A stretch of 64,000 bases of DNA from a phage. The notes beneath the pieces are model-generated. The model worked only from the letters and a program-made list of their open reading frames with translations. It was not told the DNA's origin and ran no database searches. The stretch lies in the sequence record PZ445447.1, one strand, 5' to 3'. Within the stretch, counting starts at the first letter, position 1, and the number at the start of each line of letters is the position of its first letter. This document shows positions 42,616 through 46,186 of this stretch, in pieces. Both the position numbers and the translations under genes were made by a program.

Positions 42616-43089
42616 CTAGTCTACCTGGACCCAACCGCCTGATACTTTTTTAAACATTCTTTGGTTATCGCTGCCTCGGAACGGTTTCTTGGTTGGTAAA
42701 TCTTTTACATACTTACCGTCAATGATGATATCAGCCAGTTTAAGAACATCACTAGAGATATGGTCAAATGTGAACCCAGTATATACAAGAATAGTTTTCT
42801 TGTCACCAAATTTTTCCTTAATTTTCTCCATCAGGCTAATAATATCTGGCTCATTATAGTATGCTAAGGGTTCTCCACCCAGCAGAGAGATACCGCACAC
42901 AGACGGGTTATCTAAATCTGACAAGATTTTTTGCAAGTCTTCTTCAGTAAACTCTCTCCCCTTATCTTTTGACCAAAATGCCTGATTAAAGCAACCAGGG
43001 CAAGCGTGTGGGCACCCAGATACCCATAAGGCAGTTCTAATACCTGGCCCTTCGGTGTAAGATATTTCTGTGTATCCGGCAATATTCAT
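42616..43089 (-). CDS. nrdG: anaerobic ribonucleotide reductase activating protein (radical SAM)
   Basis: CPHACPGC cysteine motif; 157 aa; downstream of nrdD. Confidence 0.8.
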   Translation of the reverse strand: MNIAGYTEISYTEGPGIRTALWVSGCPHACPGCFNQAFWSKDKGREFTEEDLQKILSDLDNPSVCGISLLGGEPLAYYNEPDIISLMEKIKEKFGDKKTILVYTGFTFDHISSDVLKLADIIIDGKYVKDLPTKKPFRGSDNQRMFKKVSGGWVQVD

Positions 43090-43202
43090 AGATACTCCGC
43101 ATCACATTTAGGGCAATGCCAAATAAAATCGTCCAGTGCCTTGCACCAACGAAGATTGCAACGACAACCACACTTGCAAATTTTATAAATACCTGTAGAC
43201 AT
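43086..43202 (-). CDS. hypothetical small cysteine-rich (zinc-ribbon-like) protein (38 aa)
   Basis: AGGAGG RBS; CKCGCRC...CPKC; ATGA-coupled to nrdG; not in ORF track. Confidence 0.45.
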   Translation of the reverse strand: MSTGIYKICKCGCRCNLRWCKALDDFIWHCPKCDAEYL

Positions 43203-43265
43203 ACTGTACCTCCTAGCTCACTGTATGTCAATAATATGCCACATCCTTGTGGCTTTTGTCAAGTA

Positions 43266-44471
43266 TCAGCAACCACAACTTCCGTAGTGCTTAACCCGTT
43301 CTATAACTTCCGCTTGCTTACCTTTATTGTAAGGACGGGAGTTTGGACTAGACAGGTACCCGGATACACGTCTGATCACACTGATCGTTCCCTCTTCATG
43401 GTTTCCACACTCTGGGCATACGAATCCCTTAGCTGTTGCACTGAACTCACCAGAGAAACCACACTTAAGACATTTATCCACAGGCTGGTTGATACCAAAA
43501 TACATAATGTGTTTATATCCGAAATCAACAAGAGCTTCCAAAGCATCTAAGTTGTTTTTCAGATTTGGTGTCTCTACGTATCCGATGTTGCCACCAGAGG
43601 ATATCATAGCAAAACCTTCTTCATACTCCCACTTATCAAAAGGAGAGCTATTGATCCATACTGGCTGATGGAAACTGTTGGTGAGATATTCATGCTCGTG
43701 CTTCAACACTTCAGGATATTCACGATCCAGACAGGTTGCAGCTTTATAGCATAGACTCTCAGAAGGGGTGCCGTACAAACTAAACGCTAGTCTACTTTTC
43801 TTCTTGTATCGCTCACAAGCATCTCTCATGTGCTGAAGTATTCCAAGAGCTAAAGCCTTGTCACCCTCTCTGCCCAAAATCTGACAGGTTTCATACACAC
43901 CAATATACCCAATACTGATGGAAGCGTACCCGTCATAGAAGAGTTTATCAATACTCTCTTCAGGATCCAGGCGAGCAAGAGCGCCTTCACACCACATGAT
44001 AGGGTTCTGCCCTGCCTTAGTGCCTTTCAGACGGTTAACCCTTACAAGGTGAGCTTCATATGCCAAATCCAGATACTCGTCAAGAACGGAAAAGAAATCA
44101 ACACCTTCCGTCTTAGCTTTTGCCGCAATCATTGGCAGGTTAAGACTAACAACACCCAAGTTGAATCTGCCGAGGTATTTCTCCTCACCTGTTTCCAAGT
44201 CATTGTATTTGCTAAGAAAACTCCGGCAACCCATGCTCGTTACTTTACCATCTGTCGAGCCTGTCACTTTACGATTTAGTGGAACAGAAACAAAGTCAGG
44301 ATAAATCCGCTCTGCAGAGCATTCCAGAGCTAATCGTTTCAAATCATAGTTAGGATCTCCAGGGTTCATGTTGACACCCTCTTCTAGGAAGAACAACACT
44401 TTAGGGAACACAGGTGTGATACGTTCTTCACCAAGACCCATTTTGTGGACTTTCAAGTAGTTTTTGGTAAT
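43266..44471 (-). CDS. nrdD: anaerobic ribonucleoside-triphosphate reductase, exon 2 (C-terminal part)
   Basis: C-terminal CxxC pairs and glycyl-radical-like RVSGYL; exon start placed right after intron terminal G (inferred). Confidence 0.7.
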   Translation of the reverse strand: MTKNYLKVHKMGLGEERITPVFPKVLFFLEEGVNMNPGDPNYDLKRLALECSAERIYPDFVSVPLNRKVTGSTDGKVTSMGCRSFLSKYNDLETGEEKYLGRFNLGVVSLNLPMIAAKAKTEGVDFFSVLDEYLDLAYEAHLVRVNRLKGTKAGQNPIMWCEGALARLDPEESIDKLFYDGYASISIGYIGVYETCQILGREGDKALALGILQHMRDACERYKKKSRLAFSLYGTPSESLCYKAATCLDREYPEVLKHEHEYLTNSFHQPVWINSSPFDKWEYEEGFAMISSGGNIGYVETPNLKNNLDALEALVDFGYKHIMYFGINQPVDKCLKCGFSGEFSATAKGFVCPECGNHEEGTISVIRRVSGYLSSPNSRPYNKGKQAEVIERVKHYGSCGC

Positions 44472-45325
44472 CATTCTACCAAAGACTGAGGTGTCCAGAC
44501 CTAAACTTAATGTGATGAATGGAGTCTGCTGTCTCCTCCCTGTGTTTCCACAGGGCCAGACTATCTCTTACTCTACTTCAATAAGATAATAACCCTTTAT
44601 TGTGAGATGCTTACCTTCGGCATTTCCTTCGATAGCCCTATGAACGTTACCTACGTTCAAATTTAAGGCTTTTGCACAGGCATAGAGTGAAGGATATTCA
44701 CCCACCAAGGTTTTACCTTTGTATGCCTGCACTTTCCTATAGCACTTACCTGGACAAAGTCCTGTTCGGAAAGCATGTCTCTTATTATCTTCCGGCAAAA
44801 CCCACTCTAGGTTAGACGGATGATCATTCAATGTATTGCCATCTTTATGATTCACTTCCCAGTTTTCAGGGTCTACTGGGACATCTGGCAAACAATACAA
44901 GGCAACAACCCTTGAGGTTTGGATTCGAATCTTTTTGCCTTTGTGGTTGAAAGAGTACATATAACGGCGTTTAACATGCTTGTTACCTTTTCCATAACCT
45001 CCCCACAATATTGGGTGCAGCATTCCACGTTTTCCGTATACGTTTCCAACCTCATCAATCACATAGTTTGATTCTTCACCATTAAGAATGATCTTTTTCA
45101 TAGAGCCTCTCCATTTCGAAGTTAGCATTTCAACTAACCCCTACACTACTTGGTTCAGAAATGTTTGTCAAGCATCTCTGCCTTTCGTTAGTCGTTACAA
45201 CCGTTCCAACTCCTGTAAGAACTAGTCACGGGATTGGCATAGCTTTCGCCTTAGCGTTCCCCGTTAGCCGGATTTACCGACCCCTCTTATGAGGTTAGGA
45301 GAGTTTTACAACGGCCAGTTTGTTA
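44472..45325 (-). mobile_element. group I intron interrupting nrdD, carrying an HNH homing endonuclease ORF
   Basis: Begins UAA right after exon 1; contains AACGGGGAAC and CAAUCCCGUGACUA elements resembling the T4 td/nrdD intron core as I recall it; ends AAUG before exon 2. Confidence 0.7.
44568..45128 (-). CDS. HNH homing endonuclease (intron-encoded)
   Basis: NHKDGNTLNDHPSNLEWV HNH motif; same strand as nrdD. Confidence 0.8.
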   Translation of the reverse strand: MLTSKWRGSMKKIILNGEESNYVIDEVGNVYGKRGMLHPILWGGYGKGNKHVKRRYMYSFNHKGKKIRIQTSRVVALYCLPDVPVDPENWEVNHKDGNTLNDHPSNLEWVLPEDNKRHAFRTGLCPGKCYRKVQAYKGKTLVGEYPSLYACAKALNLNVGNVHRAIEGNAEGKHLTIKGYYLIEVE

Positions 45326-46186
45326 ACCGTTGACAGAAGTTAACGTATTGATTTGATAGAGCAAAGTCTGCATGCTGTCAAATACGTCTTTATCTGTCAT
45401 TTGCATTGCAACAGTCTCAGCATCTGGCAACCAATGTTCCTGGCAAAATTTAAGGTTCTTCTCATAGGTCGCTTCAGCATACTGTGCCAGATAATGATCA
45501 ATATGGCTCATAGTCTGACCACCATATTGAGCACTAGCTACTGCACTAGAGATTTGGCTAAGGATTGTTGTTGCAACCCCTATTGACTTCGGCTTACTGA
45601 CATGGGCGTTACCAATGTTGAATCCGTTTTCCAACATATCTGGATAATTTACCAAACAACAGTTTGTTAACGGACTGATCAAGTAGTCAAGATCATGCAC
45701 ATGGATGAAGCCCCTATTGTGCTCTTCTGAGACACGGTCTGGCAGGATCTGTGTTGATGCAAGGTGTTTGCTAAGGATGCCTGCAAGCAGGTCACGATGA
45801 GTGTGTACATGATTGGTAGGCTTATTTGCGTTTTCTTTTGTAAATTCATCACAAGTTCGATCCAAGAAGCCACTAATATCTGCAAGCAGTTTTCCACCTG
45901 CCTCTCTGTTATTATCTCTTGTCTGTCTATACTGGATGTATTCTCTGGCTGCACATTTTAAACCCATATCCATAAGAGCGTCTTCAACAAGGATATGGAT
46001 ATTTTTTACAGAGATCGTGCACTGATCGGTTGGTAGATTGTTAGCAACAACTTCATTAACCGCGCAGGCGATCCGGTAAGCTTCTTCTTCAGTATGTCCA
46101 GACTCAAGTAAGGCGGACTCTGCCGCCTTGATCACCTTAATTCCGTTATAGAACTCTTCTCTACCGTCCCGTTTTACAACTTTCAC
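45326..46186 (-). CDS. nrdD: anaerobic ribonucleoside-triphosphate reductase, exon 1 (N-terminal part)
   Basis: ATP-cone-like N-terminus MKVVKRDGREEFYNGIKV; ORF ends ...TSVNG with stop at intron start. Confidence 0.7.

Follow-up and report, generated by a model that had tools for sequence, protein, structure and literature searches.

Gene context of the interrupted nrdD gene

The window, by which is meant the whole 64,000-nucleotide stretch of phage DNA that was analysed, carries on its minus strand, in this order, nrdA, nrdB, a glutaredoxin gene, an interrupted nrdD, a 38-aa Cys-rich ORF, nrdG and phoH. In this cluster, nrdD, which encodes the anaerobic ribonucleotide reductase, is found as two minus-strand ORFs, one at 46186-45326 and a second listed from ATG 44474, with an ORF that scores above the Pfam HNH_3 cut-off lying between them on the same strand and a TAA (45325-45323) directly after the first. 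An earlier sequence-only reading of this DNA had proposed that nrdD is split here by a group I intron that houses an HNH homing endonuclease, and this proposal is supported by the independent lines of evidence described below; the intron length of 854 nt (44472-45325) given in that reading is corrected to 797 nt (44529-45325). Over the 854-nt segment there is 100% identity to Escherichia phage MaxBurger (MZ501093), a Vequintavirus and rV5-like E. coli phage of the BASEL collection. The predicted elements of the locus are as follows.

45326 to 46186, minus strand: nrdD exon 1, with the ATP-cone and the N-terminal part of NrdD (Pfam NRDD)
44529 to 45325, minus strand: predicted group I intron of 797 nt, placed by intron-less alleles, by the match of the spliced product to QXV82698.1 and by structure
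44568 to 45101, minus strand: ORF of the HNH homing endonuclease (177 aa and a stop codon), which occupies the P8 loop (Pfam HNH_3, I-HmuI, PHROG 59)
43266 to 44528, minus strand: nrdD exon 2, starting CAG ACU CCA UUC (QTPF), with the glycyl-radical domain, stop codon included

Annotation of this gene varies among records. The start of nrdD is set at ATG 45973 in the GenBank entry of MaxBurger and at the equivalent of GTG 46186 in the annotation of Murica. Several GenBank records give exon 2 from ATG 44474 as a separate CDS, which is where ORF finders place its start, and many sister-phage records split nrdD into two or three CDSs.

Intron boundaries and the exon junction

Exon 1 ends in ACU UCU GUC AAC GGU (TSVNG), its last base being U 45326, and the intervening RNA begins, as had been noted before, with UAA immediately afterwards; this UAA is in frame with exon 1. 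The 5' splice site of the earlier reading (U 45326/UAA 45325) is thus retained, and its 3' end, which lies 57 nt too far downstream, is not. The frame of exon 2 is open for 57 nt upstream of its first methionine, where it codes for QTPFITLSLGLDTSVFGRM (44528-44472), and this peptide matches the conserved NGQTPFVTITFG... segment of T4 NrdD. The intron had been described as ending in AAUG; these letters do precede AUU ACC, but the ATG in question is merely the first methionine codon of the open frame. When the exons are joined as TSVNG/ITKNY, as had been suggested, the product has a 19-aa deletion relative to both T4 NrdD and Murica NrdD, and in an alignment of this 688-aa product with the T4 NrdD crystal-structure sequence (1h78) the gap falls at the junction, where 1h78 reads NGQTPFVTITFGTGTDWTERMIQK. 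The boundaries had been marked as inferred in that reading.

In the corrected junction, ...TSVNG/QTPFITLS..., the 3' splice site would follow G 44529, the omega-G and last nucleotide of the intron, whose 3' end reads ...GGAGACAG; the intron of an ORF-less homologue ends in ...GGGGACCG. A 400-nt query made of the 200 nt on each side of this junction is matched by blastn without interruption, at 93-98% identity, in many records of Vequintavirus, among them Murica, pangalan, typing phage 14, EduardKellenberger, JES2013 and APECc02. In a nucleotide alignment, the intron-less phages Murica and EduardKellenberger read ...GTCAACGGG/CAAACYCCATT..., and the window reads ...GTCAACGGT (797 nt) CAGACTCCATT..., so that exon 2 starts with CAGAC in the window versus CAAAC in the intron-less phages, and the junction glycine codon is GGT in intron-bearing alleles and GGG in intron-less ones. 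The ligated exons are predicted to read ...GUCAACGGU/CAGACUCC... at the RNA junction, with a predicted spliced sequence of ...GTCAACGGT/CAGACTCCATTC... around it.

In silico excision of 44529-45325 restores an uninterrupted nrdD, whose 707-aa product shows 98.3% identity to the NrdD of Murica, which is uninterrupted, in a gap-free alignment of 707/707 residues. Read from the GenBank start, the same product (636 aa) is exactly the GenBank protein QXV82698.1 of MaxBurger, and the GenBank nrdD CDS is a two-piece join over 2708 nt, which is 1911 + 797. From this match and this join it follows that the element has already been annotated with the same boundaries; the nrdD intron is therefore known, being present in public GenBank annotation with an identical exon junction. 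In the BASEL paper, a general methods statement describes the boundaries of homing-endonuclease-associated introns as having been fixed through comparative genomics (PMC8594841), and a literature search found no paper that explicitly describes the nrdD intron of the window.

Structure of the ribozyme core

The predicted core, listed here in its 5' to 3' order on the minus strand, is made up of the following elements.

45326 to 45332, minus strand: P1 exon strand CAACGGU, ending in U 45326, the base whose U·G wobble defines the 5' splice site
45309 to 45315, minus strand: internal guide sequence GCCGUUG, the intron strand of P1, giving a 7-bp P1 with CAACGGU
45298 to 45303, minus strand: P3 5' strand CUCUCC, pairing with GGAGAG 45112-45107
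45294 to 45283, minus strand: hairpin A, CCUC AUAA GAGG, an extra element between P3 and J3/4-P4
45281 to 45267, minus strand: hairpin B, GUCGG UAAAU CCGGC, an extra element after P3 and ahead of the UA that leads into P4
45228 to 45264, minus strand: P4-P5-P4' (ACGGGG ... UCCCGU), holding AACGGGGAAC and CAAUCCCGU, both of the earlier reading
45197 to 45227, minus strand: P6 stem-loop region, from folding
45189 to 45193, minus strand: P7 5' strand GACUA, preceded by J6/7 (AAC) and pairing with UAGUC 44563-44559
45180 to 45156, minus strand: P7.1, an 8-bp hairpin, bigger than in the ORF-less variant
45141 to 45118, minus strand: P7.2, between P7 and P3' as in T4 sunY
45107 to 45112, minus strand: P3 3' strand GGAGAG, of which the longer GGAGAGG would also be the Shine-Dalgarno sequence of the HNH ORF
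45105 to 45100 (CUCUAU) and 44576 to 44571 (GUAGAG), minus strand: the two strands of P8, whose loop is filled by the HNH ORF
44559 to 44570, minus strand: J8/7 (UAAGAGA) and P7 3' strand UAGUC (44563-44559), aligned to the J8/7-P7' consensus of RF00028
44538 to 44555, minus strand: P9 hairpin CCCUGUG GAAA CACAGGG, followed by AGGAGACAG, which ends in the omega-G

Just 5' of the guide sequence, CUG 45318-45316 can pair with the CAG of exon 2, which would give a short P10. P7 with its flanks (AACGACUA and AGAUAGUCU), which closes the P3/P7 pseudoknot, is invariant across all relatives and T4 sunY. The two sequence elements that had been quoted in support of a T4-like core are present, AACGGGGAAC at 45265-45256 and CAAUCCCGUGACUA at 45236-45223. 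The motifs of P4 and P4', AACGGGGAA and CAAUCCCGUG, are presumably common to the T4 td intron, as the sequence-only reading suggested. Placement of P7 at the first GACUA (45227-45223) was ruled out by comparison with T4 sunY and by covariation, and placement of P3 on hairpin B, as in the Rfam alignment of navn, by comparison with T4 sunY and by the pairing CUCUCC/GGAGAG in the window versus CUCUGC/GCAGAG in navn.

When the ORF is replaced by a short loop, the minimum free energy (MFE) fold of the resulting 293-nt RNA holds P1, long-range P3, P8 and P9, and within P3 it holds P4-P5, P6, P7.1 and P7.2 (z = -5.9 relative to dinucleotide shuffles). In navn, the 257-nt homologue that naturally has no ORF takes the same fold (z = -4.85), and the same helix order is found in independent MFE folds of seven relatives, including navn, L009, L014, T4 sunY, L016 and L008, of which L009, L014 and L016 are metagenomic relatives. 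RNAalifold predicted 45 pairs from five sequences, and in 16 of these both sides have changed in a compensatory way. The stems of P3 and hairpin B covary among the relatives as listed here.

P3: window CUCUCC/GGAGAG; navn CUCUGC/GCAGAG; L007 no entry; L009 AAUAUCU/GGAUAUU; L014 UCGGG/CCCGA; T4 UCUGCC/GGCAGA
Hairpin B: window GUCGG/CCGGC; navn GUCAGC/GCUGGC; L007 GUCGGC/GCUGGC; L009 GUCAUC/GAUGGC; L014 GUAGGA/UCCUGC; T4 absent

Hairpins A and B, with covarying stems, are found in navn, L007, L009 and L014/L021, and they are absent from T4 sunY, L016 and L008. With its two hairpins between P3 and J3/4-P4, a position at which T4 sunY has none, the window intron does not fit the canonical model perfectly. 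In L019, an HNH ORF with its own consensus promoter (TTGACA-N17-TATAAT) sits at the hairpin A/B position between P3 and P4.

Subgroup IA2, the T4 sunY/Twort type of group I intron, is characterised by P7.1 together with P7.2. In the window both hairpins lie between P7 and P3', collinear with T4 sunY, which places the intron in this subgroup when membership is defined by extra P7.1/P7.2 helices after the 5' strand of P7, a definition taken in part from a review of bacterial group I introns (PMC3984707). This review makes no mention of nrdD or of a P3-P4 insertion (PMC3984707), and a literature search for extra P3.1/P3.2 helices in group I introns returned nothing relevant.

Covariance-model scores

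No part of the window matched Rfam at gathering thresholds. With a permissive threshold, RF00028 matches 44538-44825 on the minus strand with 27.7-27.8 bits, anchored on J8/7-P7'-P9, and it is the only Rfam family with E<0.05 in the 64-kb window on both strands. A covariance-model search had been named as a check on the group I assignment; its match lies inside the gap and on the correct strand, with a score below the cut-off of 50. The 5' half of the RF00028 alignment of the window is wrongly placed inside the HNH ORF. The gathering score of 50, which is the operational cut-off of one model and not a defining property of the class, is missed by the window intron and also by the ORF-less homologue (30.1 bits, full model). 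Among the T4 introns, RF00028 gives 105.3 bits for nrdD/sunY, whose core is uninterrupted, 40.3 for td and 35.7 for nrdB, and L016, which shares the P4...P7 pattern, scores 70.1 bits. Because the proven td and nrdB introns of T4 also fall below 50, the failure of the window intron at this threshold is a limit of the model and not contrary evidence.

The HNH endonuclease ORF

The ORF within P8 is annotated in its 177-aa form in magaca and slur16, and in the MaxBurger record from an upstream start, ATG 45128 (186 aa). Pfam HNH_3 matches residues 87-116 of the 186-aa form with 28.9 bits (cut-off 24.8), and for a C-terminal DNA-binding module of the NUMOD/helix-turn-helix kind there is a weak, I-HmuI NUMOD-like match to PF22083 (18.3 bits, cut-off 27). 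The protein is collinear with I-HmuI (1u3e, 174 aa) over residues 8-160 / 8-159 (E = 7e-4), and the alignment takes in the I-HmuI motif region VDHKDGN...NLRWV, that is, the HNH motif HKDGN...NL.W. It also matches PHROG 59 (HNH endonuclease) with E = 1e-25.

The start codon, ATG 45101, sits within the 5' strand of P8 and is preceded, at a distance of 5 nt, by GGAGAGG, which makes a good Shine-Dalgarno sequence. As the Shine-Dalgarno sequence is at the same time the P3 3' strand and the start codon is part of P8, folding of the ribozyme and translation of the endonuclease should exclude each other on any one RNA molecule, and through these P3/P8 signals endonuclease translation and splicing may be antagonistically coupled. 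A candidate sigma-70 promoter of the endonuclease's own, TTGACA-N17-TAGTGT in P7.1 (45169-45141), was not reported by a consensus scan, and promoter-like sites in the region are no more frequent than in shuffled sequences.

Distribution among relatives

Among about 119 Vequintavirus-level records, nrdD is uninterrupted in some 77. The intron with its ORF is present, at 97-100% identity, in about 28 phage records, and in about 14 the same site holds an ORF-less intron of 257 nt, whose core is about 86-87% identical; these counts are estimates in which duplicate RefSeq and GenBank entries are included. The intron is thus polymorphic for presence and absence at one site among close relatives, and such patchiness among near-identical genomes fits the signature expected from homing. 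When IMG/VR was scanned for exact matches to the full P4...P6 motif, one further contig only was found, which is Vequintavirus-like; a looser pattern found 15 loci.

Comparison with known phage introns

Among the closest known systems is the nrdD (sunY) intron of phage T4, which interrupts the same host gene and also has UAA as its first codon. In both introns the order of elements is P1, no P2, P3, P4-P6, P7, P7.1/P7.2 before P3', P8, P7' and P9, and the two are near-identical in J6/7-P7 (AACGACUA), in the linker from P7.2 to P3' (CGAAAY) and in J8/7-P7' (AGAUAGUCU). In T4 the intron lies behind the first base of codon Y180, whereas that of the window follows the equivalent of G190, 32 nt downstream, so that a shared insertion site is ruled out; the likeness to T4 introns put forward in the sequence-only reading accordingly holds for the core and does not extend to the site of insertion. 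The T4 ORF encodes I-TevII, a GIY-YIG enzyme, and lies 3' of the core, as opposed to the HNH ORF in the P8 loop of the window intron. In addition, T4 sunY has no P3-P4 hairpins and scores 105 bits with RF00028, as opposed to two hairpins and 27.8 bits in the window.

Another known system is the SPO1 DNA-polymerase intron, which codes for I-HmuI (PDB 1U3E), a protein of a similar length class (174 aa versus 177 aa in the window). Both enzymes are encoded in phage group I introns, but their similarity is low (E = 7e-4), the host genes differ (DNA polymerase versus nrdD) and SPO1 belongs to another phage lineage. The nrdB intron of T4/RB3 (with the HNH enzyme I-TevIII) and the td intron of T4 resemble that of the window in that they belong to group I, lie in coliphage genes for nucleotide metabolism and have a ribozyme interrupted by an ORF; they differ from it in gene, ORF position and endonuclease architecture. 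In the T4 td and nrdB introns the ORF is located in P6a. A td-like sequence is present in the second intron of navn.

Within the Vequintavirinae, HNH-containing introns in nrdA, nrdB, terL and pol of Pectobacterium phage CB7 have been shown to splice by RT-PCR (PMC7344957), and in the rV5 genome paper introns are described in the terminase gene (terL) only (PMC3606486). These introns belong to the same subfamily and are the same kind of element as that of the window; the CB7 and rV5 papers describe no nrdD intron.

Interpretation and alternative explanations

Taken together, 44529-45325 (minus strand) is very probably a mobile group I intron of subgroup IA2 with a core of the T4 nrdD/sunY type, inserted in nrdD between GGU (Gly) and CAG (Gln), ...SVNG/QTPF.... 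The main competing explanation is that the insert is not spliced at all and that nrdD is either expressed as two polypeptides that assemble after translation or is a tolerated pseudogene. It is true that a stop codon closes exon 1 and that an ATG (44474) occurs within the frame of exon 2, and NrdA of Aeromonas phage Aeh1, which is split by mobE, is reportedly made as separate polypeptides that assemble after translation. Moreover, nrdD is dispensable for aerobic laboratory growth, so that viability of the phage is no proof of splicing, and one HNH-containing intervening sequence of CB7 did not splice (PMC7344957). Against this stands a complete, covarying and thermodynamically unusual group I core that lies exactly between the exons, with the canonical U and G at its boundaries. 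The 257-nt ORF-less version at the same site in other phages cannot itself be an inserted free-standing endonuclease. In intron-less alleles ATG 44474 serves no function, and a start at this codon would lose the 19 conserved core residues whose in-frame codons directly precede it. An unspliced insert is therefore considered improbable.

The mobile group I intron could also have been delimited differently, as in the sequence-only reading, with 854 nt (44472-45325), an AAUG end and the junction TSVNG/ITKNY; such an intron would still end in G, and its junction would be in frame. However, the product would be without the 19 residues (QTPFITLSLGLDTSVFGRM) that are found in intron-less sisters and conserved in T4 NrdD, and the Pfam NRDD profile would jump from position 154 to 181. 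The corresponding 617-aa product is absent from a collection of 15 billion proteins, in which the corrected 636-aa product is present. Since the 57 nt in question adjoin exon 1 in the intron-less alleles, which are contiguous across this region, that junction is refuted and practically no weight is left to it. A similarly negligible chance is given to the insert being an intein or a group II intron, even though inteins are frequent in ribonucleotide reductase genes and some group II intron proteins carry HNH domains. An intein is excluded by the TAA right after exon 1, as no continuous frame runs through the insert, and a group II intron is excluded because no group II family of Rfam matches at E<0.05 (permissive threshold) in the window and the ORF has no reverse-transcriptase domain, its Pfam domains being of the HNH type only.

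If the insert is a mobile group I intron, as preferred here, ribosomes that have finished translating exon 1 would be stopped by the in-frame UAA at the start of the intron. An exogenous guanosine bound at P7 would attack after U 45326, the terminal G 44529 would then take the P7 site, and the free 3'-OH of exon 1 would attack after G 44529, ligating the exons. In a mixed infection, the HNH enzyme might, by analogy with I-HmuI, nick or cut an intron-less nrdD near AACGGG^CAAAC, and repair of the cut gene would copy the intron into it; homing of this kind would explain the intron polymorphism among close relatives.

Significance

Ever since T4, phage ribonucleotide reductase genes have been a textbook setting for group I introns that carry homing endonucleases. 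The element described here is a standard mobile group I intron, and beyond correct annotation it adds little. Its lesson for annotation is that, in an ORF-based reading, the first ATG of exon 2 is taken for the 3' splice site and 19 conserved residues are lost without notice. The intron is mildly unusual in its P3-P4 hairpins, in the blindness of Rfam to its lineage and in the location of the endonuclease translation signals within P3 and P8. It is conceivable, though doubtful, that the window intron together with navn, L007, L009 and L014/L021 forms a distinct IA2 sub-lineage, marked by P3-P4 hairpins that are perhaps undescribed and by antagonistic coupling through P3 and P8. The P3-P4 hairpin element appears to push even ORF-less members below the Rfam threshold, and, if the hairpins do lower the score in this way, introns of this kind would be missed systematically. 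As RF00028 at its curated threshold misses the lineage of the window intron, covariance-model screens undercount such introns.

Architecture of the intron and its relatives

The intron in nrdD of the window carries two hairpins (window 45294-45267) located after the P3 5' strand and before J3/4-P4. They are also present in its ORF-less homologue in phage navn (L002, 2531-2565) and in three further related introns (L009, L014 and L021), with stems that covary among five introns. The T4 nrdD intron (sunY) and the related introns of L016 and L008, in contrast, lack a helix at this position. Of the introns with the P3-P4 hairpins, even those that lack an ORF reach only about 30 bits against the Rfam group I model RF00028. 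A different arrangement is seen in a related intron within an unrelated host gene on a 275-kb viral contig (L019, 1950-2730), where an HNH ORF of 225 aa lies between P3 and P4, at the position of the two hairpins of the window, and runs through P4-P7.1. The interior of this intron holds a consensus promoter (TTGACA-N17-TATAAT) and an AAGGAG ribosome-binding site.

A promoter-like sequence, TTGACA-N17-TAGTGT, is likewise found inside P7.1 of the window intron (45169-45141, minus strand), some 40 nt 5' of the HNH start codon, and it sits in a 40-nt expansion of P7.1 that is exclusive to the ORF-bearing variant of the intron. Its -10 element is weak, and a scan for consensus promoters did not report it.

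Intron sites in phage nrdD

The nrdD gene of some sister phages is interrupted a second time, by a td-like group I intron (L002, 3058-3819; L007, about 2283-2540) inserted directly 5' of the active-site cysteine codon (TSMG/CRSFL, with the slash marking the insertion point). In navn this intron contains another I-HmuI-like HNH ORF, navn_81. Its L007 counterpart is ORF-less and matches RF00028 at 70.5 bits. This second intron is absent from the window, where the equivalent position at about 44250 (...TSMG/CRSF...) is contiguous and reads VTSMGCRSFLSKY. Three IMG/VR contigs (L010, L017 and L020) also have a group I intron in nrdD whose P4/P7 core is that of the window intron; here the insertion is at the glycyl-radical motif (...SRVCG/...), and an HNH-like ORF follows the intron in each. 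Phage nrdD thus has at least four distinct intron sites (one at the glycyl-radical motif, one in T4 and two in Vequintavirus), all of which fall in highly conserved codons.

Gene annotation and the region downstream of nrdD

In many GenBank records of sister phages, nrdD is split into two or three CDSs or labelled 'hypothetical protein', and is not given as a spliced join; because of this the NrdD proteins of such phages are truncated in protein databases; the NrdD protein cluster includes members of 321-428 aa. Records of the MG0656xx series (e.g. MG065646, MG065655 and MG065690; 135-146 kb), named 'Campylobacter phage' with C. jejuni as host, are 95-99% identical to rV5-like phages of E. coli over nrdD and the intron found in the window. 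They have the appearance of Vequintavirus genomes that were mislabelled or came from contamination.

Between nrdD and nrdG there is a Cys-rich ORF of 38 aa (MSTGIYKICKCGCRCNLRWCKALDDFIWHCPKCDAEYL; window 43086-43202, minus strand) that overlaps the start of nrdG. Its annotation is 'hypothetical', and Pfam gives no match for it. Just upstream of this ORF, a terminator-like hairpin lies at 43253-43238 and two promoter-like TTGACA sites lie at 43262 and 43231.

Divergence of the exon 1 flank

The 60 nt of exon 1 adjoining the intron (window 45326-45385) are identical at 59 of 60 positions between the window, whose intron has the ORF, and intron-less phages, whereas the same flank in phages with the ORF-less intron (L002, 2441-2500) shows only about 85% identity. 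A divergent co-conversion tract may have accompanied the arrival of the ORF-less allele; alternatively, this allele may have diverged at the endonuclease target.
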